Shown piece by piece: positions 1-64,000 of a stretch of DNA of 64,000 nt (positions are counted from its first letter, which is position 1; each line of letters opens with the position of its first letter). The notes below the pieces were generated by a model. It made no database searches, was not told the DNA's origin, and worked only from the letters and a program-made list of their open reading frames with translations. Position numbers and translations under genes: made by a program. The stretch is taken from positions 1 to 64,000 of IMG/VR virus record IMGVR_UViG_3300020471_000623; one strand, written 5' to 3'. This DNA comes from a virus.

Positions 1-1665
1 TTAGATGACGATACAGCCCGAAACGCAGTAGCGTCAGGCACAGCAACGTTAATTAAAAACGATGACGACTATGTAAATAACCACGGTTCAGGTGAAGGTT
101 CAAATGGAATGTGGGCAGCTAAGTATCCAGGCGCTATGGGGAACTCCCTTAAAGTGTCATTTGCGGATTCTAGTAATTACGACACTAACTCAGTAGCAAG
201 TGTAACTATAACAGCAGGAGGCTCAAGTTATACTTCAGCACCTACTGTAACTTTTAGTGCACCACCAGCTGGCGGAGTTACTGCTACAGGAACAGCTACA
301 ATAAGTGGCGACGCTGTATCAGCAGTTACAATTACTAATCCAGGTAATGGATACACATCAGCACCTACAATTTCATTCTCAGGTGGAGGCGGTTCTGGAG
401 CAGCAGCAACAGCAGTTCTAGCAACAGATTGGGCATATAAAAGCTTCTTTAGCTTTGCTCCATTAACTTCACTTTACACTCAAGCTAAATTAGGCTCAAA
501 TGACGAGTTGCATTTAGTAGTAGTTGACGAGGACGGACTATTTACAGGAACAATAGGAACAATCCTAGAAAGATATGAAGGTCTTTCAAAAGCATCCGAC
601 GCTAAAGGCTTAGACGGCGAATCAATATTTTATAAAGATGTGATTAATGCACAATCTAAATACATTTATTGGACAGACCATCCAGCAGGCGACAGCACTT
701 GGGGTAACTCCCAGGCAAACCAAGCATTTACATCAGGCTTTACAGCAGCAGAATCAACTGTTTCGCTTTCAGGCGGTGTAGATGATGCTCCAGACAGTGG
801 CGACATTCAAACAGGATGGTCATTGTTTGCAGACAAAGAGAGTATAGACGTAAGTCTATTAATAACAGGGGAAATTAGCACAACAGACCAAAAATGGGTC
901 CAAGACAATGTTGCTAGAGTCCGTAAGGATTGTGTAGCATTTGTATCACCTCAGAAAGCTAGTGTTGTAAACAACTCAGGCTCAGAGGTAACAGACACTA
1001 TTGCTAATAGGAACGCTCTAACAGGAACATCTTATTCCTTTTTTGACGGTAACTATAAGTATATGTATGACAGATACAATGATGTCTACAGATGGGTTCC
1101 ATTAAACGGAGACATTGCAGGGTTATGTGTAATCACAGATAACAACAATGATCCTTGGTTCTCACCAGCAGGTTATAACAGAGGTATTATTAAAAACGCT
1201 GTTAAACTAGCATATAATCCTACACAAGCACAAAGAGATGACTTATATAGTGCACAAGTCAATCCAATAATTAATTCTGCAGGAAGTGGAATTGTATTGT
1301 TGGGAGACAAAACTATGTTAGCAGCACCTAGTGCTTTCAATAGAATTAACGTGAGAAGGCTGTTTAACGTTGTAGAAAAAGCAATTGCTACAGCAGCTCA
1401 ATTTCAATTATTTGAATTTAACGACGCATTTACAAGGTCACAATTCACATCGTTAATAACACCTTTCCTCAGAGACGTTCAAGGACGTAGAGGACTATAT
1501 GACTTTAAAGTAATTTGTAACGAAAATAATAACACTGGAGAAGTAATTGACAGAAACGAATTCGTAGCTGACATATTCCTAAAACCAGCCAAGTCTATTA
1601 ATTTCATACAACTAAACTTTATTGCTACTAGAACGGGTATTAACTTTAGTGAAATTGGCGGGTAA
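1..1665 (+). CDS. gp18: Tail sheath protein (5'-truncated by window edge)
   Basis: Frame open from base 1; PWFSPAGYNRG, FNRINVRRLF and FVADIFLKPAKSINFI motifs; precedes tail tube and portal. Confidence 0.97.
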   Translation, partial: LDDDTARNAVASGTATLIKNDDDYVNNHGSGEGSNGMWAAKYPGAMGNSLKVSFADSSNYDTNSVASVTITAGGSSYTSAPTVTFSAPPAGGVTATGTATISGDAVSAVTITNPGNGYTSAPTISFSGGGGSGAAATAVLATDWAYKSFFSFAPLTSLYTQAKLGSNDELHLVVVDEDGLFTGTIGTILERYEGLSKASDAKGLDGESIFYKDVINAQSKYIYWTDHPAGDSTWGNSQANQAFTSGFTAAESTVSLSGGVDDAPDSGDIQTGWSLFADKESIDVSLLITGEISTTDQKWVQDNVARVRKDCVAFVSPQKASVVNNSGSEVTDTIANRNALTGTSYSFFDGNYKYMYDRYNDVYRWVPLNGDIAGLCVITDNNNDPWFSPAGYNRGIIKNAVKLAYNPTQAQRDDLYSAQVNPIINSAGSGIVLLGDKTMLAAPSAFNRINVRRLFNVVEKAIATAAQFQLFEFNDAFTRSQFTSLITPFLRDVQGRRGLYDFKVICNENNNTGEVIDRNEFVADIFLKPAKSINFIQLNFIATRTGINFSEIGG

Positions 1666-1667
1666 AT

Positions 1668-1675
1668 TATAAATA
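1668..1675 (+). promoter_or_regulatory. T4-type late promoter TATAAATA
   Basis: Exact gp55 consensus just upstream of gp19. Confidence 0.85.
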
Positions 1676-1693
1676 GGTATATAGGAGAATAAA

Positions 1694-2251
1694 ATGCCAG
1701 ACATATCACAATTTAGAGCACAACTAGGAGATGGTGGTGCAAGACCCAACCAATTCGTAATAAAGATCAATTGGCCGAGCGTCTGTCCTTCAGGATTAGG
1801 TCTAGACTCTAATACAAGTTTACTTGTAACGGGTGCAGCTGCCCCAGCTTCAACTGTTAATCCAGCGATTATACAGTATAGAGGTAGGGAAGTTAAGTTC
1901 GCAGGAGAAAGAATTTTTGACCCATGGACTATTACAGTCGTTAATCCTAACGATTTCGGAATGCGTGCAGCATTTGAGGAATGGTTAGATGCAATGAATG
2001 CAAAAGATTCCAATGAGGGTGCACTAAGACTAGAAGATTACGGAGCAGAAATCATCGTTCAACACTTAAACAGAAACGATGACCCAATTTGTGAATGGAC
2101 TTTAAGAGGTGCTTTTCCAATTAACATGTCAGAAATTGCATTACAATATGCACAGAACGACATTTTGGAAGAATACACAGTTACATTCCAATACCAAGAT
2201 TACATTGGTGGAGAAGGCAGAAGCTCAGTAACAGCATCACTTACAGCGTAA
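1694..2251 (+). CDS. gp19: Tail tube protein
   Basis: GGARPNQF, YRGREVKFAGERIFDPWTITV and GAFPINMSEI motifs; synteny. Confidence 0.95.
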   Translation: MPDISQFRAQLGDGGARPNQFVIKINWPSVCPSGLGLDSNTSLLVTGAAAPASTVNPAIIQYRGREVKFAGERIFDPWTITVVNPNDFGMRAAFEEWLDAMNAKDSNEGALRLEDYGAEIIVQHLNRNDDPICEWTLRGAFPINMSEIALQYAQNDILEEYTVTFQYQDYIGGEGRSSVTASLTA

Positions 2252-2286
2252 GTGAGCCAATTAACCAGAATGGTTAGGTAGAAATT

Positions 2287-3870
2287 ATGGATTTATTTGG
2301 ATTTGAAATAAAGAGGAAGGATAAGTCTACAAATGAAAAATCGTTTGTAGCTCCCTCCGAAGATACGGCGATAGAAAGTATAAGAGCCGGTGGTTATTAT
2401 GGCACCTACATGGATTTGGAAGGTGTCGCACAAACCGAGGCAGAACTTATAAAAAGATATCGTGACATCGGCATGATGGCTGATGTAGACACAGCAATTG
2501 AAGACATTATTAATGAGTCAGTTGCACAGTTAGAAAACGAAGCGCCGGTAGAACTTAATGTTGACAATGTCCAATTATCGTCAGCAGTTAAGAAAAGAGT
2601 CCTAAGTGAATTCGAGGAAATTAAAAGTATCCTGGACTTTAAGGACAGAGCCCAGGATTACTTCCGTAGGTGGTATATAGATGGACGACTATACTTCCAC
2701 AAGGTTATAGACCTTGAAAATCCTAAGGCAGGGATAAAAGATATTAGATATATCGACCCTCGTAAAATTAGGAAAGTCCGAGAAGTCAAGAAGGAGAAAA
2801 ATCCTTCTGGAGTTCAAATGGTTAAGAGTGTTGAAGAATACTTTATCTATAATGATAAAGGTGTAACACAAAAGCCTGGAGCATATGTAGCACCTGAAAA
2901 CCAACAAGGTTTGAAGATTACAAAAGATGCTATTACATATTGTCCAAGCGGATTAGTAGATCAAGATAAAAACATACCTTTATCTTATTTACATAAGGCT
3001 ATTAGGCCAGCTAACCAATTAAGAATGATGGAGAACGCAGTAGTCATTTATAGGATTACAAGGGCTCCAGAAAGACGTATTTTTTATGTAGATGTTGGTA
3101 ACTTGCCAAAGATGAAGGCAGAACAATATCTAAAAGACATCATGGACAGGTATAGAAATAAACTTGTTTACGATGCTAACACAGGAGAGATACGTGATGA
3201 TAAGAAATTTATGTCTATGTTGGAAGACTTCTGGTTACCTAGAAGGGACGGCGGAACAGGGACACAAATTGATACATTGCCAGCAGGTCAAAACCTAGGG
3301 CAAATAGAAGACGTAGAATATTTTCAACGTAAATTGTATCAAGCATTGAATGTTCCAGTATCACGTTTAGAACAACAGGCAGGATTAAACTTTGGTAGAG
3401 CAGCTGAGATAAACCGAGACGAGATGAAGTTTACAAAATTCATCATCAAGTTAAGAAGGAAGTTCTCAGTTATGTTAAGTGATCTTTTAAGAACACAGCT
3501 CTTACTAAAAGGTGTTTTAACTGAAGACGACTTTGATGCTATTAAAGACGATCTAGAGTTTGAGTTTGCTACAGATGCTTACTACACAGAATCTAAAGAA
3601 CAAGAGATTCTAAGAAGTAGAGTAGAAGTATTAAATGGATTAGCAGCTTACATAGGAACATTTTTTAGTAAGCGTTATATACAGAAAAACGTATTAATGC
3701 TTACCGATGAAGAGATTGAGACTATCGAAACAGAATTGTTAAGTGAGCCTCAATATCAAAGACAATATCAATGGAGTCCATTAAGTGCAGTTCAACAAGA
3801 AGCACCTGAAGGACCCGAAGGACCAGCCGGCGAAGGAGTTCCAGAACCCGGCCCAGATAACGGAGCATAA
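2287..3870 (+). CDS. gp20: Portal vertex protein
   Basis: RRWYIDGRLYFHK, IYRITRAPERRIFYVDVGNLPK and MLEDFWLPRR motifs. Confidence 0.98.
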   Translation: MDLFGFEIKRKDKSTNEKSFVAPSEDTAIESIRAGGYYGTYMDLEGVAQTEAELIKRYRDIGMMADVDTAIEDIINESVAQLENEAPVELNVDNVQLSSAVKKRVLSEFEEIKSILDFKDRAQDYFRRWYIDGRLYFHKVIDLENPKAGIKDIRYIDPRKIRKVREVKKEKNPSGVQMVKSVEEYFIYNDKGVTQKPGAYVAPENQQGLKITKDAITYCPSGLVDQDKNIPLSYLHKAIRPANQLRMMENAVVIYRITRAPERRIFYVDVGNLPKMKAEQYLKDIMDRYRNKLVYDANTGEIRDDKKFMSMLEDFWLPRRDGGTGTQIDTLPAGQNLGQIEDVEYFQRKLYQALNVPVSRLEQQAGLNFGRAAEINRDEMKFTKFIIKLRRKFSVMLSDLLRTQLLLKGVLTEDDFDAIKDDLEFEFATDAYYTESKEQEILRSRVEVLNGLAAYIGTFFSKRYIQKNVLMLTDEEIETIETELLSEPQYQRQYQWSPLSAVQQEAPEGPEGPAGEGVPEPGPDNGA

Positions 3871-3875
3871 ATAGT

Positions 3876-4229
3876 ATGGCAGAAAATGAGAACAATGAAG
3901 TTGAAGTAGAGGTTCACGAACCTTCTACTAATAGTATGTTGGACAATATGATTGCTGGTAAGGCATCAGACGTTCAAGATAATTTTAACGATTTAATGCA
4001 CAGTAGGGCAACCGAAGCATTAGACCAACGTAAGGTAGAGCTTGCTAAAGATATCTTTAGACAGTCTATAGAAGGAACCGATGGTTCTGACATCGAAGAG
4101 TTTGACAAAATGGGTCTTACTCCAGGAGATGAGCCAATAATCGGAGATAAACTTGAAGACAATCTAGTTGATATAAATATGGAGACAGGACTACCTGTAG
4201 ACAAAGAGGAGACAAATGAAAACACTTAG
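3876..4229 (+). CDS. Acidic prohead core protein, gp67-like
   Basis: Follows portal; acidic; FNDLM..RA.EALD.RK pattern. Confidence 0.6.
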   Translation: MAENENNEVEVEVHEPSTNSMLDNMIAGKASDVQDNFNDLMHSRATEALDQRKVELAKDIFRQSIEGTDGSDIEEFDKMGLTPGDEPIIGDKLEDNLVDINMETGLPVDKEETNENT

Positions 4230-4518
4230 AGAATTCAGAGAAAGACATGGCATCGAAGAAGCTAAAGTCGACGGTGTTGCTAAAGGTTCATTAGATGGTG
4301 ACTCTCACATGTGCGCAAGCAAGATATTCCACAAGGAATGGAAAGAGGGAACACCTATTATTGGTGAACACGCAGAACCTGTAGATGGTAAAGTCGCTTG
4401 GTATAAAGTTATGTTTGAACACGGTATAGAAACAGTTGACGTGAATGACCCTGATGTTGAAATCGTAGCAGAAGCAGGACATGGTAACCATGCTAAAAAG
4501 CCTGCTAAAAAATATTAA
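4216..4518 (+). CDS. Head-region protein with capsid-targeting-like N terminus
   Basis: GGAG RBS; N terminus MKTLREFRE; WYKVMFEHGIE motif. Confidence 0.6.
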   Translation: MKTLREFRERHGIEEAKVDGVAKGSLDGDSHMCASKIFHKEWKEGTPIIGEHAEPVDGKVAWYKVMFEHGIETVDVNDPDVEIVAEAGHGNHAKKPAKKY

Positions 4519-4540
4519 TTTTTAACAAAGGAAATAACAA

Positions 4541-4966
4541 ATGGCAGTCACAGTAAACACATTAAAACTGACCCAAGTCCAGGGTGTGGTTAGTGTGAGG
4601 GGGACTGCAGCGACGGGAACAATAGATATTAGTTCAACACTAAAGAAATCGTCCGAAACGCAGAGCTCCCCAACAGTAAACATAAAAGGACTAACATGGG
4701 CGCTTTCAAGCGGTGCTAGTGCAAAGGTGCAACGTAACTCCGTTGTGCTTTATGAACTAATGGAAAGCGGCAATATAGACATGTATGGTTATTCAGACAA
4801 TTCAGAAAACACATCAGACATAGAGGTAGTTATAGCGGGGGGAGCCGGTGGAACTGTCATTGTAGATTGTGCTAAAATATCTGGATATGGTAGCCAACAA
4901 CACCAAAACGCGCCACTAGACACTAATGATAGTGGAGACGTATATGACGGAGGAAGTTTAGGATAA
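4541..4966 (+). CDS. Hypothetical virion protein
   Basis: AAGGA RBS; Ser/Thr/Gly-rich; within head operon. Confidence 0.6.
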   Translation: MAVTVNTLKLTQVQGVVSVRGTAATGTIDISSTLKKSSETQSSPTVNIKGLTWALSSGASAKVQRNSVVLYELMESGNIDMYGYSDNSENTSDIEVVIAGGAGGTVIVDCAKISGYGSQQHQNAPLDTNDSGDVYDGGSLG

Positions 4967-5625
4967 TGAGATTAATAAAAGAATTTAACGAAAGTATTAC
5001 ATACTTAACTGAAGAGAGTAAAGATCCTAAAAAGCCTAACGTTTTTATAGAAGGCGTATTTTTACAATCAGATTTAAAGAACAAGAACGGTCGTGTATAT
5101 CCTAAAGAGATAATGCAACGAGAAGTGCAGCGTTATGTAGATGAGAACGTAAAAACTAAAAGAGCATATGGAGAATTAGGTCATCCTGAAGGTCCAACAG
5201 TTAATTTAGATAGAGTCTCACATATGATAACATCTCTTAAGGAAGACGGTAACAACTGGATTGGTAAAGCCAAAATTATGGATACACCAATGGGCCGTAT
5301 TGTTAAAGAACTCATTAGCGAGGGTGCTCAACTAGGTGTTAGTTCACGTGGTTTAGGTAGTCTCAAAGAGAGAAACGGCATTAATGAAGTTCAAGGGGAC
5401 TTTATGCTTGCCACAGCGGCAGATATTGTAGCTGATCCTAGTGCTCCAGACGCTTTTGTAAGCGGCATAATGGAGGGCAAAGAATGGGTTTTTGTTAATG
5501 GGAAATGGACAGAACAAGATATTGAGGAAGCAAAAAGCACTATTTCTAGAGCCAATATAAGGGATTTAGAAGAAGAAAAGATGCAAGTTTTCTCAAATTT
5601 CTTAGATAAACTGTCCAAAATTTAA
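4966..5625 (+). CDS. gp21: Prohead protease
   Basis: NKNGRVYP, GELGHP and GVSSRGLGSL motifs. Confidence 0.97.
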   Translation: MRLIKEFNESITYLTEESKDPKKPNVFIEGVFLQSDLKNKNGRVYPKEIMQREVQRYVDENVKTKRAYGELGHPEGPTVNLDRVSHMITSLKEDGNNWIGKAKIMDTPMGRIVKELISEGAQLGVSSRGLGSLKERNGINEVQGDFMLATAADIVADPSAPDAFVSGIMEGKEWVFVNGKWTEQDIEEAKSTISRANIRDLEEEKMQVFSNFLDKLSKI

Positions 5626-5630
5626 ATAAA

Positions 5631-5638
5631 TATAAATA
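5631..5638 (+). promoter_or_regulatory. T4-type late promoter TATAAATA
   Basis: Exact consensus upstream of gp22. Confidence 0.8.
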
Positions 5639-5697
5639 TATTAGATTAATACTATTATATTAATATATAATCCGACTTTTAATAAAAGGAGAAAGAC

Positions 5698-7044
5698 ATG
5701 GGAGTAGAATCCAAAATCAGAGAACTTCTAGAAGGCAAAGTCCAAGACGAAGCCGTAGAAGTTATAGACGAGCAGATTGCTGGAGATCAACAACCACCTA
5801 TGCAAGGTGGCAGTTCTAAAGCTAATTTGCCAGTATCCTCTGCGGATGCCCACCGTCCTTTAGATAAGAAGAACAATGGTGATGCTAGTAATCCATTACA
5901 AGGCAGCTCAAATGCTAACCCTGAAATGCAAGACCTAAGCGGTTCAAGCAATCCAGAAGGTGGCTTAACAAGCCCAGTAGGACAAGCAGCATCAAGCAAA
6001 GCTTCTAAAGCACCTGGACTAGAAGGTTCAGGAGCAGGTCAGGCACCTAACTACAGCGGTTCTGAAGACGCATCGTCTGTTGTAAATCAATCTAGCAATG
6101 CTGGAAACGTTTACAAAGAAGAAGACGAAGTTGAACCAGAAGGCGAAGAAGAAGTTCTAGATTCAGTTGAAGAAATTGATGACGAAGTAGAAGAACTTGA
6201 TTCTGATGTAGAGGTTGAAGAAGAAGAGGAAGTCGTAGCAGAAGACGTTGAAGACGAAGAAATCGTTGAAGACGAACTAGAAGCAGAAACACTCTTTGAA
6301 GATGACATTGCTAACTTATTTGAGGAAGAAGAGCATCTATCAGAAGAATTTAAAACTAAAGCAGCTTCATTATTTGAAGCAGCAGTAGTTGCCCGTGTAA
6401 ATCAACAAATAGACCTTATTGAGGACGAACTTGTTGAGGAAGCGGAAAAAGCTTTTAACGAAGCTAAAGAAAAACTCGTGGAAAACATCGACAAGTATCT
6501 GTCTTATGTGACAGAACAGTGGATGGCAGAAAATGAGATTGCCGTTGAGAACGGTTTGAAAAATGAAATCAATGAGAGCTTTATTAAAGATCTTAGAGAA
6601 ACATTTGCTAACCATTACATCGAGGTTCCTGAAGAGAAATACGATGTATTAGCATCTCAACAAACAGAGATTGATGAGTTAAAATCTAAATTAGATGAAG
6701 AGATTAACAAATCTATTTCGATCAGCGAAGAAAGGGAACAACTACAAAAGGATAAAGTATTCCGTTCCGTGGTTGACGATCTAGCTGACACTGAAGTTGA
6801 AAAGTTTGCAAGTTTAGTTGAAGGTATTACATACGACAACGAAAACATGTATGCTGAGAAACTAAATGTTATCAAGGAAAATTATTTTCCTAAAGCTAAA
6901 ACTGATGACTCAGATAGGCTAGAAGATAGCGTTGATCAGGGAGCATTATCAGAGAATACTGTAATGGACAGATATGCGAGAGCAGTAAGTCAATCCGCTA
7001 AATTTGGCGGAGTTGCAGCAGACTTCGATAAGGCAAAAAATTAA
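5698..7044 (+). CDS. gp22: Prohead scaffolding/core protein
   Basis: LSEEFKTKAASLFEAAV and YVTEQWMAENEIAVE motifs; between gp21 and gp23. Confidence 0.93.
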   Translation: MGVESKIRELLEGKVQDEAVEVIDEQIAGDQQPPMQGGSSKANLPVSSADAHRPLDKKNNGDASNPLQGSSNANPEMQDLSGSSNPEGGLTSPVGQAASSKASKAPGLEGSGAGQAPNYSGSEDASSVVNQSSNAGNVYKEEDEVEPEGEEEVLDSVEEIDDEVEELDSDVEVEEEEEVVAEDVEDEEIVEDELEAETLFEDDIANLFEEEEHLSEEFKTKAASLFEAAVVARVNQQIDLIEDELVEEAEKAFNEAKEKLVENIDKYLSYVTEQWMAENEIAVENGLKNEINESFIKDLRETFANHYIEVPEEKYDVLASQQTEIDELKSKLDEEINKSISISEEREQLQKDKVFRSVVDDLADTEVEKFASLVEGITYDNENMYAEKLNVIKENYFPKAKTDDSDRLEDSVDQGALSENTVMDRYARAVSQSAKFGGVAADFDKAKN

Positions 7045-7049
7045 TTTTT

Positions 7050-7057
7050 TATAAATA
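7050..7057 (+). promoter_or_regulatory. T4-type late promoter TATAAATA
   Basis: Exact consensus upstream of gp23. Confidence 0.85.
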
Positions 7058-7105
7058 ATTAGGTTATAGAAAACATAACAAAACGTTAAAAACAAGGAGA
7101 AACTG

Positions 7106-8371
7106 ATGTATCTTTCAGAAGAACTACAGAAAAAGTGGAGCCCAGTTTTGGATCACAAAGATCTCTCTGAGATTAAAGATCCTTATAAGCGTGCGGTAAC
7201 CACGGTTGTTCTTGAAAACCAGGAAAAAGCTCTCCGTGAGGAGAAGGAAGCCCTTTTCGAGGCAACTCATGCTAACCAGACAGGTGCAAGCGTTGATAAC
7301 TACGATCCGATATTAATATCGTTAGTTAGACGTGCTTTACCTAACTTGATGGCATACGACGTTTGTGGTGTTCAGCCAATGTCAGGACCTACAGGTCTAA
7401 TCTTCGCAATGAAGTCTCACTTTACCAGCCAGACTGGAACAGAGGCTTTATTTAACGAAGCAGATTCAGACTTCTCAGGTGGTGGCACACACGCAGGCTC
7501 TAACCCAGTTGATGGAACTTACACAACTGGTGCTGGAGTATCCACAAGCACAGCTGAAGGCTTTGGTGACTCAACAACTCTAAACGAAATGGCTTTCTCA
7601 ATCGAGAAAACTACTGTAACTGCTAAATCAAGAGCACTTAAAGCAGAATATACTGTTGAACTTGCTCAGGACTTAAAAGCAATTCATGGTTTAGACGCAG
7701 AGTCAGAACTAAGCAACATTCTTTCACAAGAAATTTTAGCTGAGATTAACCGTGAGGTTATTAGAACTATTTACAAAGTAGCAAAAACAGGCTCAGCCTC
7801 AACTGCTACAGCTGGAACATTTGACTTAGATGTTGACAGTAACGGTAGGTGGTCAGTAGAAAGATTTAAAGGTCTTTTATTCAATATCGAACGTGACGCT
7901 AACGTAATTGCACAAGACACAAGGCGTGGTAAAGGTAACTTCATCATCTGTTCATCAGATGTTGCTAGTGCTTTAGCTATGGCTGGTGTTTTAGATTACG
8001 CTCCAGCTTTATCAACTAATTTAAATGTTGATGACACAGGTAATACATTTGCTGGTGTGTTAAACGGTAGATATAAAGTATATATTGACCCTTATTCAGC
8101 AAACACAGGAGCTGCTAGCCAGTTCTATGTTTGTGGTTATAAAGGCACAAGCCCTTATGACGCTGGTATTTTCTATTGTCCATACGTCCCACTACAAATG
8201 GTTAGGGCTATTGACCCAAGCACATTCCAACCTAAAATTGGTTTCAAAACTAGGTATGGCATGATTGCTAACCCATTTGTAATGAAAGCAGATGGAACTA
8301 CTGATGCTGATTCATTCACAGCAGACAGAAACCAGTATTACAGATCTGTTAAAGTTACAAACTTAATGTAA
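7106..8371 (+). CDS. gp23: Major capsid protein
   Basis: GVQPMSGPTGLIFAM, AKSRALKAEYTVELAQDLKAIHGLDAE and FQPKIGFKTRYG motifs. Confidence 0.99.
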   Translation: MYLSEELQKKWSPVLDHKDLSEIKDPYKRAVTTVVLENQEKALREEKEALFEATHANQTGASVDNYDPILISLVRRALPNLMAYDVCGVQPMSGPTGLIFAMKSHFTSQTGTEALFNEADSDFSGGGTHAGSNPVDGTYTTGAGVSTSTAEGFGDSTTLNEMAFSIEKTTVTAKSRALKAEYTVELAQDLKAIHGLDAESELSNILSQEILAEINREVIRTIYKVAKTGSASTATAGTFDLDVDSNGRWSVERFKGLLFNIERDANVIAQDTRRGKGNFIICSSDVASALAMAGVLDYAPALSTNLNVDDTGNTFAGVLNGRYKVYIDPYSANTGAASQFYVCGYKGTSPYDAGIFYCPYVPLQMVRAIDPSTFQPKIGFKTRYGMIANPFVMKADGTTDADSFTADRNQYYRSVKVTNLM

Positions 8372-8399
8372 TTCAGGTCTTTCCAATCATTGGAAATCG

Positions 8400-8428
8400 A
8401 AAAGCCCTACAATAGTAGGGCTTTTTTT
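8400..8428. terminator. Rho-independent terminator, probably bidirectional
   Basis: AAAAGCCCTAC-aata-GTAGGGCTTTTTTT between gp23 and a convergent minus-strand gene. Confidence 0.9.
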
Positions 8429-8441
8429 GTGTCTTAAGATA

Positions 8442-8675
8442 TTAACCTAATTGATATTGGCCTTTTTCAGTAACGAATTCGTTTAACTGTCTTGCAGTAT
8501 CAATAACATCTTGTGCATTTATTGACATTGTAGGTAAAGGCTTTTTGTCATTTGGAAAGTTTTCGTTATGTTCACGTATCGCATCAACTTGTCTGTGATA
8601 GTTATCCATAAGAATACCTTGTGCTTGGTTTAGTAAGTCGGCTCTGATCTCGAACCCTGATTTGCTGTTTGACAT
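8442..8675 (-). CDS. Small hypothetical protein (only convincing minus-strand gene)
   Basis: Minus-strand RBS ACAGGAGAAAATTATG; fills an otherwise empty gap; converges on the gp23 terminator. Confidence 0.8.
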   Translation of the reverse strand: MSNSKSGFEIRADLLNQAQGILMDNYHRQVDAIREHNENFPNDKKPLPTMSINAQDVIDTARQLNEFVTEKGQYQLG

Positions 8676-8747
8676 AATTTTCTCCTGTGTATGTGTATGT
8701 CGTCCTTAAGTGGACTATATTATTTATTACTTTGGTATAATACCTAC

Positions 8748-8781
8748 TTTACTTCTGGTTAGATAGAAAGTATTATAAATA
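8748..8781 (+). promoter_or_regulatory. Overlapping sigma70-like promoter and late promoter for iscU-iscA
   Basis: TTTACT-17 nt-TATTAT with GGTT spacer motif; TATAAATA at 8774-8781. Confidence 0.6.
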
Positions 8782-8799
8782 CTATTACTAGGAGGACTT

Positions 8800-9258
8800 A
8801 TGGCTTATAGTAAAGAAGTAGTAAAAAGATTTGAAGAAGTAACAAACAATCCAGCAGCACACGGAGTAGGTAGGTTTGACCCTAACGACCCACATGTAGC
8901 TACAGGACTTACAGGCGCACCTGCTTGTGGTGATGTTATGAAGTTAGATCTAAAGTTAGACCCAGAAACAGATAGAATTTTAGATGTTAAGTTTAAAACC
9001 TATGGTTGTGGTTCTGCTATCGCTAGTTCAAGCATGTTTGTTGAAATGCTAACAGGTCTTACAATCCAAGAGGCAAAAGAAATAAAGGATAAAGATATTG
9101 CAACAGCACTAGATTTACCACCTATTAAGATACATTGTTCTGTATTAGCAGAAGATAGTATTAAGAGAGCTATCCAGGATTGGGAAGAAAAGAAAGCAGG
9201 AAGAAACACTACTTGGTTAGAACAAATGGGAGCTACTAAAAAGAATGACAGTAAATAG
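8800..9258 (+). CDS. iscU: Fe-S cluster scaffold IscU
   Basis: GAPACGDVM, KFKTYGCGSAIASSS and LPPIKIHCSVLAED; all three Cys ligands present. Confidence 0.95.
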   Translation: MAYSKEVVKRFEEVTNNPAAHGVGRFDPNDPHVATGLTGAPACGDVMKLDLKLDPETDRILDVKFKTYGCGSAIASSSMFVEMLTGLTIQEAKEIKDKDIATALDLPPIKIHCSVLAEDSIKRAIQDWEEKKAGRNTTWLEQMGATKKNDSK

Positions 9259-9610
9259 TTTTATACCTGTTCAAACTGTTAGTCGTATGATAGACTTTAC
9301 GCCTATAGGCAGAGAGAAAGTTATTGAAAGACTATCAGAAGAGAATAAAAAAGGTGTAAGATATAGTTTACTAGGTGGTGGGTGTGCAGGATTTAGTTAT
9401 GTATTTGACTATGCAGACGAACCACAAGAAGGAGATATAGAATTAGACTTTGAAGATTTTAAACTATGGGTCTGTCCTATATCAGAGAAATATTTAAAAG
9501 GAACAGTTATAGATTGGAAGAAACAAGGATTGAATCAACAGTTTATATACATGAATCCTAATGAAGCTAGCTCATGTGGTTGTGGAACATCTGCTAGTTT
9601 TGAATTATAG
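9245..9610 (+). CDS. iscA: A-type Fe-S carrier (IscA/HesB)
   Basis: GGGCAGFSY and C-terminal SCGCGTS. Confidence 0.92.
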   Translation: MTVNSFIPVQTVSRMIDFTPIGREKVIERLSEENKKGVRYSLLGGGCAGFSYVFDYADEPQEGDIELDFEDFKLWVCPISEKYLKGTVIDWKKQGLNQQFIYMNPNEASSCGCGTSASFEL

Positions 9611-9619
9611 GAGTATATT

Positions 9620-9775
9620 ATGGCAAGAGTAACAAATTATGTAAGCATTACGCCTACAAAGAAAAGTTCATCACAAGGACAAGGTGGCAGAGGTAGAAGC
9701 ACAAAGATTTCTATGTCCACGATGAATAAACACAAAAAAAGAAGCCACAAAAAATATAGAGGACAAGGTAGATGA
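9620..9775 (+). CDS. Small basic protein, 51 aa (not in ORF track)
   Basis: AGGAG RBS; MARVTNYV...KHKKRSHKKYRGQGR; ATGA overlap with gp3. Confidence 0.75.
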   Translation: MARVTNYVSITPTKKSSSQGQGGRGRSTKISMSTMNKHKKRSHKKYRGQGR

Positions 9776-10359
9776 CACTAACAAATATAACTAACGTATC
9801 AGATGCAGCATTTAGTGCTAACAATCCTGGTGAGTTGGATTACTTACGACCCAATAGTTTTAAATTTATGGTTCATAATATTCCTAATGTTAGTTATTTT
9901 TGTCAAGCAGCTAATATACCTGAAATAAACATTCCAGCAGCAGAACAATCTACACCTTTAGTAGATATACCTTACCCTGGAGACAAATTACAGTTTGGTC
10001 CTTTAATGATTAGATTCTTGGTTCAAGAAGATATGGCTAATTACAAAGAATTATATGATTGGTTAATAGGTTTAGGTTTTCCAGAAAGCCATAAACAATC
10101 TTCTGAATATACACAGAAACAAGAATATAGATTCCCTGATGCTAATCCAGATAAACTACAAGGAATAGCATTACATTCAGACGCTAGCTTATTCATGTTA
10201 GATTCTAACAACAATCCAATTACCAAAATTATTTTTAGGGACGCTTTCCCTATAAGTCTACAAGGATTAGACTTTGAAATATCTTCAGGTAACACAGACT
10301 ATCTAGTAGGTGTTGCTATGTTTAGATACAGAGATTATGTTATTGAGACAGTTACCTAA
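9772..10359 (+). CDS. gp3: Tail completion/sheath stabilizer
   Basis: YLRPNSFKF, YFCQAANIP, PGDK, NYKELYDWL and DAFPISL; precedes uvsY. Confidence 0.9.
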   Translation: MTLTNITNVSDAAFSANNPGELDYLRPNSFKFMVHNIPNVSYFCQAANIPEINIPAAEQSTPLVDIPYPGDKLQFGPLMIRFLVQEDMANYKELYDWLIGLGFPESHKQSSEYTQKQEYRFPDANPDKLQGIALHSDASLFMLDSNNNPITKIIFRDAFPISLQGLDFEISSGNTDYLVGVAMFRYRDYVIETVT

Positions 10360-10376
10360 AACGGTATTACACTTAC

Positions 10377-10405
10377 TTGACTCTTACTATGTAAGAGCTT
10401 ACAAT
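10377..10405 (+). promoter_or_regulatory. Sigma70-like promoter for uvsY with palindromic spacer
   Basis: TTGACT-17 nt-TACAAT; CTCTTAC-tat-GTAAGAG inverted repeat. Confidence 0.7.
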
Positions 10406-10415
10406 AGACTATATT

Positions 10416-10859
10416 ATGATAAAACTCAACGAAATACAAGAAATGTGGGAGGAAGACTGTAAACTAGATGAATTGAATCTAGGTCAAGAGTCTACTAAAA
10501 TCCCAGAGTTACATTCTAAATACTTGAACATGCTGACAACGTTCAAGTTACAATTACGAAAAAACAAAAGTAATTTACTATCTCTTAGACGTTTGAAATG
10601 GAAATACTTTCGAGGCGAACTAACACAAGAAGAACTAAACAAATTAGGCTGGGACCAATATTTAGGCAATGCACCGTTGAACAATCAGATGAATGAATAC
10701 TTAGACTCAGACCCAGACATTATTACATTACAAGACAAAGTAGAATACATAGAAGCTTGTCTTACACAATTAGATTATATTATGCGCTCTATTAATAGTA
10801 GATCTTTTGATATTAAGAATGCTATTGAATGGAGTAAGTTTACAAGTGGAGTATTATAA
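10416..10859 (+). CDS. uvsY: Recombination mediator UvsY
   Basis: ESTKIPELHSKYL and RSFDIKNAIEW motifs; synteny. Confidence 0.9.
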   Translation: MIKLNEIQEMWEEDCKLDELNLGQESTKIPELHSKYLNMLTTFKLQLRKNKSNLLSLRRLKWKYFRGELTQEELNKLGWDQYLGNAPLNNQMNEYLDSDPDIITLQDKVEYIEACLTQLDYIMRSINSRSFDIKNAIEWSKFTSGVL

Positions 10860-11002
10860 TGGTAGAGAAAATAGCAGAACAGATAGAAATATGTAAATGC
10901 CATTGGAAAACTATTTTCGTAGGTAGTTTTATAATGCACTTCGTATTTGATTGGTTTATATTTGGATTAGGCATTCTATTAGGAATGCACATAGGACATT
11001 AA
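10859..11002 (+). CDS. Small membrane protein, 47 aa (not in ORF track)
   Basis: TAATG coupling to uvsY; MVEKIAEQIEICKCHWKTIFVGSFIMHFVFDWFIFGLGILLGMHIGH. Confidence 0.6.
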   Translation: MVEKIAEQIEICKCHWKTIFVGSFIMHFVFDWFIFGLGILLGMHIGH

Positions 11003-11003
11003 C

Positions 11004-11576
11004 ATGAACATATTCTTACTACACGAAAATCCTACTATATGTGCTGAAATGCACTGTGATAAACATGTGGTTAAAATGGTTATTGAGTATGCACAACTTA
11101 TGTCCACAGCACACAGAGTCTTAGACGGAGATATGTATGAAAGTAAAACTGCAGCAGGCAGACGAATTAAAAGGTGGCTTCATCCTAACAGCAATATGGA
11201 AAACGTTCTATACAAGGCGAGCCATATCAACCATCCAGATGGTTTGTGGGTTAGAAGTAGTGATGCCAATTATAATTACCTTTACAATCTATGGTGTAGG
11301 TTATGTGAAGAATATACTCATAGGTATGGTAGGACACATCTAACAGAAGAAAAACTAAAAGATCTTCTTAGGTTCCCACCTAGTAATATACAACATGCAT
11401 CTATGGCAGACATTCATGGTTTGCCACTAGCTATGCCAGATGATGTAAAAGGCAGAAGTGTAGTAAAATCTTATCGTAGGTATTACAAGAAATACAAAAT
11501 GCCTTTTGCAAGATACACAAAAAGAGAAACACCTGAGTTTATGGTTGAAGAACTACACGCAGGTTATGCATCGTAA
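11004..11576 (+). CDS. Pyrimidine-dimer DNA glycosylase / endonuclease V-like family protein
   Basis: MNIF.L...HCDKHVVKM..EYAQL.STAH and H.NHP..W motifs. Confidence 0.75.
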   Translation: MNIFLLHENPTICAEMHCDKHVVKMVIEYAQLMSTAHRVLDGDMYESKTAAGRRIKRWLHPNSNMENVLYKASHINHPDGLWVRSSDANYNYLYNLWCRLCEEYTHRYGRTHLTEEKLKDLLRFPPSNIQHASMADIHGLPLAMPDDVKGRSVVKSYRRYYKKYKMPFARYTKRETPEFMVEELHAGYAS

Positions 11577-13054
11577 TGACTATCAGTGTAACCAAGAAAG
11601 ACGAAGTATATCTTAAAATAAAAACAGATCTTAGCACAGACCAAGAACTGAATGACTTCTTTACCTTTGATGTTCCTGGTGCAAAGTTTATGCCACTATA
11701 TAGAAACAGAATGTGGGACGGCAAAGCAAGGCTATACAGTTTATACAAGAAAGAATTATATGTAGGACTTCTGCCCTACTTAAAAGAGTTTGCAGAAACA
11801 TTAGAATACGATTTAGACATAAACATTCCAGATATAGGAGAAGAAACAGATGTCAAAAAACTTACAGAAGCTCTCAAATTACATGCTGGAGGAAAACCGA
11901 TACAGGCTAGGGAGTATCAACAGGATGCAGTTGATCATTGTATTAAGCAGGGCAGAACTTTGTTGCTCAGTCCTACTGCTAGTGGGAAGTCTCTTATTAT
12001 ATACAGCCTTATAAGATATCATCAGGCAAAAGGTCGTAAGCAACTTGTTATTGTTCCTACTACATCATTGGTAGAACAAATGTATGGGGACTTTCAAGAC
12101 TATGCCACAGCAGACAAACATTGGGCAGCACCTGATAACTGTCATAGGATATATGGAGGCAAAGAAAAGAGTAATGAATATCCTATTACTATTTCTACAT
12201 GGCAATCTATATACAAGTTTCCTAAGAAATGGTTTGAACAGTTTGATGTCGTGTATGGAGATGAGGCACACTTATTTAAGGCAAAGTCTTTAACAACATT
12301 AATGAATAAACTTACTAATACACCTTATAGAATAGGAACAACAGGAACATTAGACGGAACAAAGACACATAGGTTAGTATTAGAAGGTGTGTTTGGACAA
12401 GTTCATAAGGTTACTACAACTAAAAAATTAATGGAAGATAAACAACTTGCTAATCTTAAAATTGTATGTTGCACACTAAATTATAAAGACGTTATACGAA
12501 AAGAAATGAAAGGCAAAACATATCAAGAAGAAATAGATTGGCTTGTTACTAATCCAGATCGTAATGAAATAATAAAGAACTTAACTATTGCACAAGAAGG
12601 TAATACACTTGTTCTATTTCAATTTGTAGAAAAACATGGTTCAGTATTACATGAAATGATTAGCAATAGTGTTAAGAAAGGTAGGAAAGTGTTCTTTGTA
12701 TATGGTGGCACAGAAACAGAACAAAGAGAACAAGTTAGAGCTATAACAGAAAAAGAAAATGATGTAATTATTATAGCTTCATACGGCACATTTTCCACAG
12801 GTATAAATATAAGAAACCTTCATAATATTGTTTTCGCCTCTCCTAGTAAGAGTAGAATTAGAAATCTACAAAGTATAGGTAGAGGGCTTAGAAAAGGAGA
12901 TAAGAAGGTAGTATGTAACTTGTTTGACATTGGTGATGATTTATCGTGGAAATCTCACAAGAATTACACACTTAACCATTTAATAGAGAGGGTAAAACTT
13001 TATAACGAAGAAGGCTTCGATTATAAGTTAGTAAAAATAGATGTCAGAAGTTAG
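11576..13054 (+). CDS. uvsW: SF2 DNA helicase UvsW
   Basis: SPTASGKS, DEAH, GTTGT and QSIGRGLR motifs. Confidence 0.97.
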   Translation: MTISVTKKDEVYLKIKTDLSTDQELNDFFTFDVPGAKFMPLYRNRMWDGKARLYSLYKKELYVGLLPYLKEFAETLEYDLDINIPDIGEETDVKKLTEALKLHAGGKPIQAREYQQDAVDHCIKQGRTLLLSPTASGKSLIIYSLIRYHQAKGRKQLVIVPTTSLVEQMYGDFQDYATADKHWAAPDNCHRIYGGKEKSNEYPITISTWQSIYKFPKKWFEQFDVVYGDEAHLFKAKSLTTLMNKLTNTPYRIGTTGTLDGTKTHRLVLEGVFGQVHKVTTTKKLMEDKQLANLKIVCCTLNYKDVIRKEMKGKTYQEEIDWLVTNPDRNEIIKNLTIAQEGNTLVLFQFVEKHGSVLHEMISNSVKKGRKVFFVYGGTETEQREQVRAITEKENDVIIIASYGTFSTGINIRNLHNIVFASPSKSRIRNLQSIGRGLRKGDKKVVCNLFDIGDDLSWKSHKNYTLNHLIERVKLYNEEGFDYKLVKIDVRS

Positions 13055-13445
13055 TATATTAAAATTAAGAGATGGAGCTACAGTAGTGGCAAAAGTAAGT
13101 TCAGAAGATGGAGAAAAGTTTTTAGTAGAACATCCTATAGAACTTGTATCAGCAGCAGGAATGTTGAAACAAGGATTAGGAGAAGCTATTAGTTTGAAAC
13201 CTTGGATATCCATTGCAGAAGAACATGCGTTTACTATTGAAAGAGCACAAGTAATAACAGTAGCAACATTACAGGAAAAGTTTATAAACGGATATCATAA
13301 TATGGTTGAAGCTATATACTTTAAAGATCCTCAATGGATGGGAGACTTTGTTGAAGAAGAAGAGGCTCTTACAACTGAGGATGATATTAACATAGATGAA
13401 TTAGCAGATTACGCAGATGCTATCATAAAAAACAAAATACATTGA
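13041..13445 (+). CDS. Conserved hypothetical protein (small beta/Sm-like)
   Basis: ILKLRDG..VVA and LKPW motifs; usual position between uvsW and gp55. Confidence 0.6.
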   Translation: MSEVSILKLRDGATVVAKVSSEDGEKFLVEHPIELVSAAGMLKQGLGEAISLKPWISIAEEHAFTIERAQVITVATLQEKFINGYHNMVEAIYFKDPQWMGDFVEEEEALTTEDDINIDELADYADAIIKNKIH

Positions 13446-13446
13446 T

Positions 13447-13896
13447 ATGAAAGAATTAGGAATGGTATTATTAGGTTGTCTTGTATTCGTAGGATTCTTT
13501 GCAGGTGTTGTATATCCTGATTTAGAATACAAAGGTTATCCTAGCACACATAATTGCACAGGCGAGTGTTATGATGAGTATGTTAGAACACATGGAACAA
13601 CTGTAGAAATATTAAAGGCTAAACAGGCAATAGCAGCAGGCGACCCGTTTAGCAGTATTAGAGGCTTATACGCAGGTTGCGCTGCCTGTCATGGTAGGAA
13701 CGGAGAAGGTAGTGGAATGTTTCCTCAGTTAGCAGGTAACAGTGCAAGTTATATTAGTGGACAACTAATCAAGTATAAGAATAGAGAACAAATTGGAATG
13801 AACAGTTCTATGATGTGGGGACAAGCAGGCAACTTGTCTGATAAAGAAATTGAATTATTAGGGGAATACATAGAAGCAGGTTTCCCAGCTGAATAA
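13447..13896 (+). CDS. Membrane-anchored class I c-type cytochrome (c553/c4-like)
   Basis: N-terminal TM; CAACH heme motif; G.G.FPQLAG and distal Met (SMM). Confidence 0.88.
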   Translation: MKELGMVLLGCLVFVGFFAGVVYPDLEYKGYPSTHNCTGECYDEYVRTHGTTVEILKAKQAIAAGDPFSSIRGLYAGCAACHGRNGEGSGMFPQLAGNSASYISGQLIKYKNREQIGMNSSMMWGQAGNLSDKEIELLGEYIEAGFPAE

Positions 13897-13908
13897 TAGG
13901 AGTATATT

Positions 13909-14505
13909 ATGGCAAAAAGACGTGACCCTAACTCGGCTCACTACATTGATAACAAAGAATTTTTAGCAAAAATATCTGATTATCGTGAAAAGAGAATAGA
14001 GGCAGAAGAATGTGGTGACCCAAGACCACAAGTAACTAATTACTTGGGAGAGTGCTTTGTGAAGATTGCTAATCACTTGGCATATAAATCCAACTTTGTA
14101 AACTATACATTTAGAGATGAAATGATTCTAGATGGGATAGAAAATTGTCTTACATACATGGACAACTTTGACCCAGCAAAATCTAAAAATCCTTTTGCAT
14201 ACTTTACACAAATCACATACTATGCTTTCATTAGACGTATCCAGAAAGAGAAACGTCAGATGGAAACAAAGTTCAAATATATAAAGTCATTAGATATAGA
14301 ACAAATATTAGAAGCAAGTGCAGATGGCACAGAAGGTTCTAATGAATATATCAGTTATATGAGAGGCATAATTGAACAAGCAGAGGCAGATAATGCAGCA
14401 GCAGATAAAGCCAATGAAGGTAAGAAGATGCCTAAACGTCGTCCTAAATACTTAGACGAAAAAATTAAAGCAGAAGAAGCTAAAAAAGGTAAAACTGACT
14501 CTTGA
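13909..14505 (+). CDS. gp55: Late transcription sigma factor
   Basis: HYIDNKEF, NFVNYTFRDEMILDGIENC and NPFAYFTQI motifs. Confidence 0.97.
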   Translation: MAKRRDPNSAHYIDNKEFLAKISDYREKRIEAEECGDPRPQVTNYLGECFVKIANHLAYKSNFVNYTFRDEMILDGIENCLTYMDNFDPAKSKNPFAYFTQITYYAFIRRIQKEKRQMETKFKYIKSLDIEQILEASADGTEGSNEYISYMRGIIEQAEADNAAADKANEGKKMPKRRPKYLDEKIKAEEAKKGKTDS

Positions 14506-14531
14506 ATCTAGGTTCAGGTTTCATATATAAT
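14502..14531 (+). promoter_or_regulatory. Sigma70-like promoter for the deazaguanine cluster
   Basis: TTGAAT-ctaGGTTC...-TATAAT (18-nt spacer). Confidence 0.6.
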
Positions 14532-14539
14532 ATCACACT

Positions 14540-15421: not shown

Positions 15422-15423
15422 AT

Positions 15424-50466: not shown

Positions 50467-50467
50467 C

Positions 50468-56837: not shown

Positions 56838-56841
56838 TTAA

Positions 56842-62775: not shown

Positions 62776-62779
62776 TATT

Positions 62780-63718
62780 ATGAAACTAAATGACCGTTTT
62801 GATGAAATCAGGTCGTTATTCAATAACAAGACAATAGACCCTGTTAAAGAAGAGTGGCTAAAAAGACAGCTAAAAAACGATAAGAATCATCAATCACCTA
62901 ACTACAATATCCAATTCAACGAAGTAATATCTACAAATCCTGATTACCTCGCTACAATAAAAACACCTCATGATCTAATTCCATTTGGAGTATTGAAAAA
63001 CTTTACAGGACCTGGCCCTATTCAAAACATATATGGTTGGGAACGATATGAGTGGTCATATCAAATGAATGAGTATAATCACAGAGACCCTTGGCGATTA
63101 GATAAACCTAAATTAGTAGGATTATTTGGCTCTAGTGATACCTTTGGTGCTGGTTGTAATATAACATATGGAGAAAGATTACAGGAAAAATTACCACCAG
63201 ATTATGGTGTATGTAATTTTGCTACAGCAGGAGCAAACATTCTAGTCATGTTTAAAAAGTTTTTAGTGGTTACAAACATGATGAAATTTGATACTATAAT
63301 ATTATCTTTTCCTGAGGCAAAGTTAATAAGTATGCGAGATCAAGGTTTTATGGCATTGGGAGCATTAACACAGGTATTACCTCACACACCTGAATGGTTA
63401 CAATTATTAAGTAATTTATCACAACCTGATTATGAAGAACTACATGAAGAGATAAAACAAGGTAAAGAAGGCATACCTCTTACAGTATTTCTAATGAAAT
63501 ATGTAGATTATATGATAGATATAGCAGTAAAGAGTAAAGCAAAGGTTGTTATAAGTGGTTGGGATAGAAACTTATACTTCACAATTAAAGAAAAATACCC
63601 TGAAATCACTGCAGAACGCTGGGAATGGTTCGATAAAGCAGAATATGACAAAGCTCATCCAGGACAAGGTTCCCACGACAAATATGCTAATGACCTTTAT
63701 AAGCAGATGAAAGTCTAA
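62780..63718 (+). CDS. SGNH-hydrolase-like hypothetical protein
   Basis: FG.S.TFG.G, NFA..G and D..HPG..SH motifs. Confidence 0.55.
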   Translation: MKLNDRFDEIRSLFNNKTIDPVKEEWLKRQLKNDKNHQSPNYNIQFNEVISTNPDYLATIKTPHDLIPFGVLKNFTGPGPIQNIYGWERYEWSYQMNEYNHRDPWRLDKPKLVGLFGSSDTFGAGCNITYGERLQEKLPPDYGVCNFATAGANILVMFKKFLVVTNMMKFDTIILSFPEAKLISMRDQGFMALGALTQVLPHTPEWLQLLSNLSQPDYEELHEEIKQGKEGIPLTVFLMKYVDYMIDIAVKSKAKVVISGWDRNLYFTIKEKYPEITAERWEWFDKAEYDKAHPGQGSHDKYANDLYKQMKV

Positions 63719-63748
63719 TTTGTATAAATACATGTAATAGGAAGAAGT

Positions 63749-64000
63749 ATGGAAATTGCAGAAAGTTTAGAATACTTACTAGAGTTAGATCAACAACAAC
63801 AAAGGTTGAACACGCTCATAAGACAAGGCATGTTGCCTGCTAGACAATTACCTATACTACACAGAGCTTTAGCAAACATGAGAGCAGGTAAACTATTACC
63901 ACCTTATGAAAGAGAAGCCCTAAGTAAGTTACTAGATAAAATGATGGGATTTCAATTAGGAGATGACATCACATACAATAGAGCAAGACTTCATACTCAG
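63749..64000 (+). CDS. Late hypothetical protein (3'-truncated)
   Basis: Late promoter at 63723-63730; AGGA RBS; frame open to window end. Confidence 0.65.
   Translation, partial: MEIAESLEYLLELDQQQQRLNTLIRQGMLPARQLPILHRALANMRAGKLLPPYEREALSKLLDKMMGFQLGDDITYNRARLHTQ

Follow-up and report, generated by a model that had tools for sequence, protein, structure and literature searches.

The window examined here comprises bases 1 to 64,000 of a single contig of 82,084 bp from a marine T4-like phage (IMG/VR record IMGVR_UViG_3300020471_000623), which makes up about 50% of a genome according to the CheckV estimate. Its DNA is devoid of the tetranucleotide GTAC. At positions 31639 to 32097 on the plus strand, it harbors the gene P0001, whose product of 152 amino acids is, judging from a PADLOC match, its modelled fold and a sequence motif, a putative solitary RsaI-like Type II restriction endonuclease. 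The gene is proposed as the cause of the purge. We think it likely that this nuclease of the phage's own, acting without a methylase, drives the loss of GTAC. P0001 exhibits homology to Type II restriction enzymes, a modelled PD-(D/E)xK fold and a conserved catalytic motif. Furthermore, the lineage-specific insertion of the nuclease gene coincides with the loss of GTAC, and throughout the nuclease family homologues co-occur with GTAC depletion.

Absence of GTAC from the window and the contig

A scan of both strands of the window disclosed no GTAC at all, compared to 179.3 +/- 14.0 copies in 100 dinucleotide-preserving shuffles and to 199, 178 and 174 copies expected from base composition, a first-order and a second-order Markov model, respectively. 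The GTAC-free DNA (positions 1 to 64000, no strand assigned; 0 versus 174-199 expected) extends to the whole contig, for which 215.1 copies (second-order Markov model, z -17.6) or 257 copies (composition) were calculated. To preserve proteins and codon usage, synonymous codons were additionally shuffled genome-wide within 112 open reading frames (ORFs), which cover 95% of the contig. The 200 shuffled sequences contained on average 197.6 GTAC sites (standard deviation 11.9) and never fewer than 161 per contig. All other 15 palindromic tetramers reached 0.31 to 1.07 of the codon-shuffle expectation, so that the purge is specific for GTAC. The original prediction, made from the letters of the window, had suggested that GTAC was purged from all of it, while the palindromes AGCT, TGCA, GATC and ACGT were present. 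Both claims hold: GTAC is absent from window and contig and is the sole one of the 256 tetramers that is missing in the latter, and the four palindromes were counted 256, 311, 146 and 152 times in the contig (codon-shuffle expectation 337, 400, 221 and 179). An assembly artefact is ruled out, since GTAC was likewise missing in L001-L004, four metagenome contigs that represent this lineage independently (11.5-28.6 expected in each). As to the general make-up of the DNA, 105 of the 112 ORFs lie on the plus strand of the contig, and the plus strand of the window is strongly enriched in A (37.6%, compared to 26.9% T, 20.4% G and 15.0% C).

The codons at those junctions where GTAC could arise were counted in the whole contig. 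Ahead of threonine, glycine was never encoded by GGT (0 of 97), serine never by AGT (0 of 92), cysteine never by TGT (0 of 10) and arginine never by CGT (0 of 54), whereas elsewhere these codons accounted for 694 of 1523, 397 of 1298, 201 of 240 and 165 of 1083 cases, respectively. Similarly, valine preceding a codon that starts with C was not once encoded by GTA (0 of 160; elsewhere 638 of 1275), and tyrosine following a codon that ends with G was not once encoded by TAC (0 of 123; elsewhere 299 of 918). GTAC is avoided wholly via synonymous codon choice, and this in all three reading phases. That Gly-Thr, Ser-Thr, Cys-Thr and Val-Pro junctions dodge the word had already been read from single genes and is true without exception.

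The putative nuclease P0001

P0001 matched the curated PADLOC model REase_II (PDLC03550) with an E value of 1.2e-11, its residues 22-129 covering profile positions 20-129 of 160. The same model was matched by the homologues P0018 and P0026 and by a gene of cyanophage Syn19 (1.6e-11). No match of P0001 was obtained in Pfam, PHROGs or NCBIfam, nor did it match any PDB sequence when used singly or as a profile. The best value of the PDB search (E 0.39) belonged to an FKBP; we regarded this match as chance. Homologue searches with P0001 yielded 27 and 354 metagenomic clusters without informative names.

An AlphaFold model of P0001, which was built from 11 homologues, attained a predicted local distance difference test (pLDDT) value of 88.8. 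Its best Foldseek matches were chains of PvuII (E 5.8e-4, probability 1.0, template modelling score 0.43-0.48). VIA-align gave Z values of 7.0-7.6 to NhoI, Eco15I-N and PvuII and of 5.6 to EcoRV, which are middling by the tool's own caveat, in a list made up nearly entirely of small Type IIP restriction enzymes. In the ESM Atlas, PvuII was the closest named cluster (0.94), and the clusters of the P0001 family are 92-100% viral. D62 and K74 are invariant among the 11 homologues and D72 is conserved in at least 90% of them, together forming a D...D-x-K motif. Modelled as a homodimer, P0001 gave an ipSAE (interface score derived from predicted aligned errors) of 0.77 in three runs, while the best control gave 0.00; the pLDDT of the partners was at least 86. 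The dimer is symmetric with an interface of residues 14-48. Of 30 proteins whose structures were solved as pairs, 20 attained this mark, compared to one of 23 that were solved as single chains. P0001 may have passed on account of its resemblance to solved dimers of the PvuII type. The model thus depicts P0001 as a homodimer, as would be expected for a palindromic site.

Among 50,697 deposited phage records searched by tblastn, relatives of P0001 (32-33% identity) were only found in the cyanophages Syn19, Syn2 and ACG-2014j. The depositors named the homologues of Syn19 and ACG-2014j "R.RsaI endonuclease", and the target of RsaI is given as GTAC in PMC2588503. In our preferred reading, P0001 is a small PD-(D/E)xK Type IIP restriction endonuclease of the RsaI kind which most likely cuts GTAC. 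The original prediction had named an RsaI- or PabI-type enzyme for the case of a host nuclease. For the phage gene, a PabI-type enzyme gained no support, P0001 matching no Pfam family at E <=0.01 and having PD-(D/E)xK enzymes as its best fold matches; that PabI was not among the fold matches is by itself no decisive evidence against it. The gene has been retained over a long time and is under purifying selection: for the five orthologues of the lineage, the ratio of nonsynonymous to synonymous substitution rates (dN/dS) was 0.10-0.23, with dS values of up to 1.1.

The PD-(D/E)xK fold also occurs in resolvases and homing endonucleases, and VIA-align indeed aligned the P0001 model with I-Ssp6803I (Z 6.8) and Hjc (Z 5.8). 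P0001 might in that case be a homing or repair nuclease, and GTAC might be avoided for reasons unrelated to restriction, e.g. a clash with DNA modification or with the packaging or replication machinery. We hold this to be extremely improbable, because Type IIP restriction enzymes head the matches by both fold and profile, the pairing with a methyltransferase that was found for most homologues (see below) is a signature of restriction-modification, and GTAC loss tracks the nuclease family in very different viruses.

Relatives with and without the nuclease gene

P0001 is flanked by two genes of the same orientation. Upstream, a gene for a CobS-like AAA+ ATPase (30465 to 31652, plus strand; Pfam AAA_5, E 4.7e-17) marks the insertion slot, its last 14 nt overlapping the nuclease gene. 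The downstream neighbour is a DUF3310 gene (32082 to 32387, plus strand; Pfam DUF3310, E 5.2e-9), which overlaps the nuclease gene by 16 nt and occupies the position where the homologous cassettes of other viruses carry a methyltransferase.

A scan with the CobS protein retrieved 80 loci from marine T4-like phages related to this one (65-87% identical). Only one of them, L004, contained the nuclease gene, and it lacked GTAC. The remaining 79 loci, which served as controls, had 2423 GTAC sites versus 3373 expected (0.72). In all 41 close loci (L085-L125; CobS 78-85% identical) CobS is directly followed by DUF3310 without a nuclease gene. Precisely between the two is where the window and L001-L004 carry it. 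The insertion of approximately 460 bp and the complete loss of GTAC thus occurred together in five of five loci and in none of the 41 close relatives. A relative of 170 kb, which is 99% complete, has no nuclease homologue anywhere and showed 50 GTAC sites in this locus (67 expected). Zero GTAC with at least ten sites expected was encountered in just one of the 79 control loci (L144, see below). The comparison of relatives with and without the gene at position 31639, which the original prediction had put forward, therefore came out in favor of its idea: all five carriers are free of GTAC, and the phages without the gene do not share this avoidance.

These data bear upon a role of the host. A host-encoded GTAC restriction system of the RsaI, CviQI or PabI type could be the selecting agent, with the phage nuclease being incidental or acquired later. 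Site avoidance is indeed described as widespread in phages (PMC6286503). However, the 79 related loci without nuclease keep GTAC at 0.72 of expectation, and all that the slot is missing in the 41 close ones is the nuclease gene. Moreover, a host possessing a GTAC system would methylate its own GTAC sites, which would render a conserved phage nuclease (dN/dS 0.1-0.2) useless against host DNA. For these reasons, and in view of the distribution of the family described below, we consider selection by a host enzyme unlikely.

With regard to the affiliation of the phage, its gp43 DNA polymerase is only 49% identical to cyanophage polymerases, and a megablast comparison of 20 kb of the window with deposited phages only gave a 374-bp match to the portal gene of S-WAM1. 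Upstream of the CobS gene, a sigma-70-like promoter match (30398 to 30426, plus strand; TTGACT-17-CATAAT, 10 of 12 positions matching) may be taken only as a lead for how CobS, nuclease and DUF3310 genes are transcribed, since the seven promoter-like matches of the region are no excess over shuffled sequences (7.4).

Homologues in other viruses

A profile scan of IMG/VR revealed 80 loci with a nuclease homologue, many of them in metagenome-assembled genomes (MAGs) of giant viruses, and 85 homologue loci were analyzed in total. Pooled, they contained GTAC at 0.22 of the Markov expectation, compared to 0.65-0.97 for the other 15 palindromes. GTAC was the most depleted palindrome in 33 of the 85 loci versus three of the 79 controls, and 21 of the 85 had no GTAC where at least ten sites were expected. 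In Syn19 and ACG-2014j, GTAC was present but halved (66 versus 130 and 65 versus 156 expected in 40 kb). The giant-virus MAG locus L009 had no GTAC (71 expected) and no methyltransferase in the locus. As L009 also carries a eukaryote-type gene for a cytochrome-b5-fused fatty-acid desaturase, its GTAC loss cannot be due to an enzyme of a bacterial host. Hence, viruses unrelated to each other, one with a eukaryotic host among them, show GTAC loss together with the gene, which again speaks against selection by the host.

Within 185,579 prokaryote genomes, a pattern scan found one locus of the family. It belongs to a Flavobacteriales MAG, lies on a contig of 2.3 kb and is adjoined by a methyltransferase of the NPPF kind (see below). 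This pattern-based search gives a faint hint that the nuclease family may be confined to viruses. Two of the viral loci differ in other ways. L072 (9521-10447) encodes a nuclease form of 308 amino acids with an N-terminal extension, in which the first block of the family is repeated in degenerate form. In L008 (1-10744), nuclease and NPPF methylase occur together; this locus contains 21 GTAC sites (33-42 expected), no GATC and two CATG, 33 of each of the latter words being expected.

Methyltransferase partners and solitary nucleases

Grouping of the homologues at 90% identity resulted in 59 clusters, 43 of which possess a methyltransferase, while 15 have none in the locus and one could not be judged. 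In each of the 43 clusters the methyltransferase ORF is located at most 78 bp from the nuclease gene. Two kinds were distinguished. The NPPF kind (51 loci) had no Pfam match and only faint NCBIfam matches; it was recognized by PADLOC as MTase_II (2.1e-34), and its profile matched ErmC', METTL5, BsaXI and TaqI, all of which are adenine-N6 methyltransferases. One NPPF ORF on its own gave no match to PDB sequences. The SPPY kind (5 loci) belongs to the Pfam family N6_N4_Mtase. In Syn19 and ACG-2014j, the nuclease gene overlaps a downstream gene annotated as "DNA methyltransferase", which is of the N6_N4 type. According to PMC2588503, methylases for GTAC indeed employ two chemistries, M.CviQI and M.PabI generating N6-methyladenine and M.RsaI and M.MjaV generating N4-methylcytosine.

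Clusters with and without a methyltransferase differed in the number of sites. GTAC was completely missing in nine of the 15 clusters without methyltransferase versus four of the 43 with it (L044, L046, L073 and L076; Fisher p 2e-4), and the pooled ratios of observed to expected sites were 0.068 and 0.313, respectively. The cassette carriers ranged from 0.02 to 1.15 of expectation, most of them lying at 0.02-0.5. One cluster scored as non-zero has 13 GTAC sites, 12 of which come from the first 6.7 kb of L021 (1-10518). L021 looks mosaic and could be a recombinant or a chimeric contig; its last 3.9 kb, next to the nuclease gene, are free of GTAC. So are five of its six sister contigs, L030 having a single site.

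When the 59 nucleases were placed in a maximum-likelihood tree, nine changes were required to explain the lack of a methyltransferase, six of them being forced by well-supported branches. GTAC-free orphans are found at no fewer than three separate places, namely the lineage studied here, L009 and a group near the SPPY-linked clade. On this tree, the orphan state arose repeatedly.

For the phage itself, no ORF of at least 100 amino acids with the motif [DNS]PP[YFWH] was detected in the contig, and its 82 kb contained no match to the profiles of the two partner methyltransferase families or to PF01555, PF00145 and PF02086. We weighed whether a complete restriction-modification pair might nevertheless exist, its methyltransferase being encoded in the half of the genome outside the contig and the purge being an extreme case of self-site depletion. 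The completeness of about 50% leaves room for such a gene. Separated genes for nuclease and methylase occur in bacteria, as reported in PMC3488263, and the four clusters named above reached zero GTAC in spite of a methyltransferase. On the other hand, in all 43 methyltransferase-bearing clusters that gene is in the immediate vicinity of the nuclease gene, where this phage has DUF3310 just like its nuclease-less relatives. The motif search, the two custom profiles and the three Pfam families failed to reveal a candidate in 82 kb, and the phage, having no sites, would offer nothing for a GTAC methylase to act upon. We therefore rate a hidden partner as very unlikely.

Further missing words

GTAC is not the only palindrome that was lost. 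The contig is also free of GTTAAC, GTATAC and ACTAGT, for which 17.6, 12.9 and 12.2 copies, respectively, were expected by codon shuffling, and the same three hexamers are absent from L001-L004. In 519 kb of close relatives without nuclease gene (L085-L125) they were found 183, 84 and 52 times. It was considered that they might be secondary sites of P0001. This was rejected, as the words are near expectation in other GTAC-free orphan carriers: the group of L019, L023, L027, L031 and L032 has 11, 19 and 16 copies versus 12, 24.5 and 24 expected. As the loss of the hexamers is not found in other orphan carriers, we treat it as a separate phenomenon. Non-palindromic GTNNAC words are present in the contig.

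TACGTA showed another distribution. It was missing in the contig and in the 519 kb of the 41 close relatives (165 expected from composition) and occurred seven times in 458 kb of more distant relatives. The avoidance of TACGTA is clade-wide and independent of the nuclease gene. In 42 of the 79 control loci, ACGT was the most depleted tetramer.

Several of the GTAC-free orphans in other viruses have lost further tetramers. The L019 group lacks GATC, CCGG and GCGC (0 versus 242, 77 and 77 expected from composition), L014 and L015 lack ACGT and CCGG, L022 lacks ACGT, and L026 lacks AGCT. Further nucleases, viral or host, may be behind these extra losses. When the 76 window ORFs of at least 100 amino acids were examined with PADLOC, no REase_II besides P0001, and hence no second nuclease for the hexamers, was found among the matches listed (25 of 40 families). 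PADLOC also reported single-member matches to models of the LmuB, mad3, 2OG, DEDDh, REase_I, mREase_IV, DpdF and pVip type. The proteins behind these matches are probably those of the SMC-like, helicase, AAA+ and radical-SAM kinds encoded by the phage.

Some of these results, together with others, weigh against the phage's own nuclease as the driving force. The loss of the three hexamers and of TACGTA suggests that further agents, perhaps host enzymes, also shape the palindromes of the lineage; such a pattern resembles the pressure exerted by several restriction systems and is an argument for selection by the host, even if the hexamer losses, not being common to other orphan carriers, point to a cause separate from that of the GTAC purge. 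L144 (IMGVR_UViG_3300018428_000181, 1-15891) has no GTAC (39-49 expected), and its 24-kb fragment contains no nuclease homologue, which is likewise compatible with a host enzyme. Conversely, five orphan clusters retain some GTAC (0.13-0.32 of expectation). Their ORFs downstream of the nuclease had neither a Pfam nor a methyltransferase-profile match; these clusters resemble viruses of eukaryotes, and may encode their methyltransferases at another genomic location. The name RsaI was given by the depositors to cyanophage genes that are only 32-33% identical to P0001. As discussed, a methyltransferase could sit in the other half of the genome. Finally, a correlation gives no direction, and if a host enzyme had purged the phage beforehand, such a nuclease could be gained without harm.

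L144 is somewhat more distant, its CobS being 71% identical. The slot between CobS and DUF3310 is occupied there by another ORF of approximately 170-205 amino acids, which by eye is similar to 2-oxoglutarate oxygenases.

Proposed mechanism

On balance, the idea of the original prediction that a GTAC-specific nuclease, either the phage's own or a host's, acts as the selective agent is supported, and the phage's own gene is favored because its presence tracks GTAC loss both within the clade and across unrelated viruses. We infer that P0001 cleaves GTAC, that it is active during infection, that it is the selective agent rather than a host enzyme, and what it may be directed against. The phage would produce a homodimeric RsaI-like nuclease cutting GTAC, and its own genome would be spared by the absence of sites instead of methylation. 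New GTAC sites arising by mutation would be weeded out by selection on synonymous codons. The enzyme would then be free to cut any unmethylated DNA bearing GTAC in the infected cell without harming the phage. Its target might be the host chromosome, for nucleotide recycling or host shut-off, or co-infecting rival viruses.

A likely route to this state would be a mobile nuclease-methylase cassette which depletes its own site, so that the methylase becomes dispensable and is lost. The route is suggested by a continuum reaching from cassette carriers at 0.02-1.15 of the expected GTAC over the four at zero to the orphans at zero. In its widest form, the proposal is that an RsaI-like mobile cassette spreads among phages and giant viruses, depletes GTAC and repeatedly sheds its methylase, leaving a lone nuclease of 150 amino acids as a weapon against host DNA or competitors. 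This wider scenario is tentative, and we would give it slightly less than an even chance.

Comparison with known systems

According to the common view, the owner of a restriction enzyme is spared only if its DNA is modified, by a partner methylase or in another way. In the virus studied here, about 200 codon junctions per 82 kb appear to have been recoded, and this state to have been maintained over a divergence of approximately one synonymous change per site. Should P0001 cut GTAC, it would be a clean case of viral self-immunity by genome composition and would account for a striking anomaly of composition shared by many marine phages and giant viruses that are uncultured. In that event, a missing word together with an orphan nuclease could also be used to predict enzyme specificities from metagenomes.

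The closest known counterparts are the RsaI-labelled genes of the cyanophages (Syn19_153; ACG-2014j gp047), which are similar to P0001 with regard to the PADLOC model and share 32-33% identity with it. RsaI itself is a Type IIP enzyme cleaving GT^AC. Like P0001, these proteins are small (about 150-170 amino acids), and the predicted PD-(D/E)xK fold of P0001 would place it in the PvuII/EcoRV branch of blunt cutters, with a modelled dimer. In contrast to Syn19 and ACG-2014j, which have an overlapping methyltransferase gene and retained GTAC, neither a methyltransferase nor GTAC was found in this phage.

The recognition site of PacI is a rare one of 8 bp that consists of A and T only. PacI of Pseudomonas alcaligenes, as cited in PMC3488263, resembles the situation of P0001 in that a methylase-less enzyme is tolerated because the genome encoding it is site-free. 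The P0001 gene is intact and constrained, and GTAC, its presumed site, is missing in 82 kb and in four more contigs of the lineage. The two cases differ in that PacI resides on a bacterial chromosome, whereas in the phage the site has 4 bp, would be expected at intervals of about 380 bp and was recoded at approximately 200 positions per 82 kb. Unlike the PacI case, moreover, the site-free orphan state recurs in several viral lineages.

Type II nucleases of lytic viruses are also part of the restriction-modification of chloroviruses (e.g. CviQI, GTAC) and marseilleviruses. In chloroviruses, the nucleases are considered to serve the degradation of host DNA. For marseilleviruses and chloroviruses, an exclusion of rival viruses by Type II nucleases has been proposed (PMC7253447). 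M.CviQI is described as methylating the adenine of GTAC (PMC2588503, PMC4357717). Many of the P0001 homologues in giant-virus MAGs adjoin an NPPF gene that resembles adenine methylases. While chloroviruses and marseilleviruses rely on methylation for their own protection, the absence of sites apparently takes this role in the phage studied here and in nine or more homologue clusters.

The avoidance of palindromes by phages under host restriction (PMC6286503; Gelfand and Koonin 1997, cited in PMC2588503) similarly entails the synonymous loss of one or a few short words. Site avoidance by phages, virus-borne restriction-modification and solitary enzymes of the PacI type are thus already known, as documented in PMC6286503, PMC7253447 and PMC3488263, respectively. 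A solitary Type II enzyme that is encoded by a virus and whose 4-bp site has been purged did not emerge from our literature search, whose coverage excluded most subscription journals and supplements. In host-driven avoidance the agent belongs to the host; here, the proposed agent is the virus's own gene, and sister phages without the gene are not depleted. P0001 would be a candidate mechanism for the breakdown of host DNA or for excluding other viruses in abundant marine T4-like phages that do without T4's modified-base strategy. By analogy, the lone nuclease would be the functional counterpart, in phages with ordinary bases, of the cytosine-specific nucleases directed by T4 against the DNA of its host.

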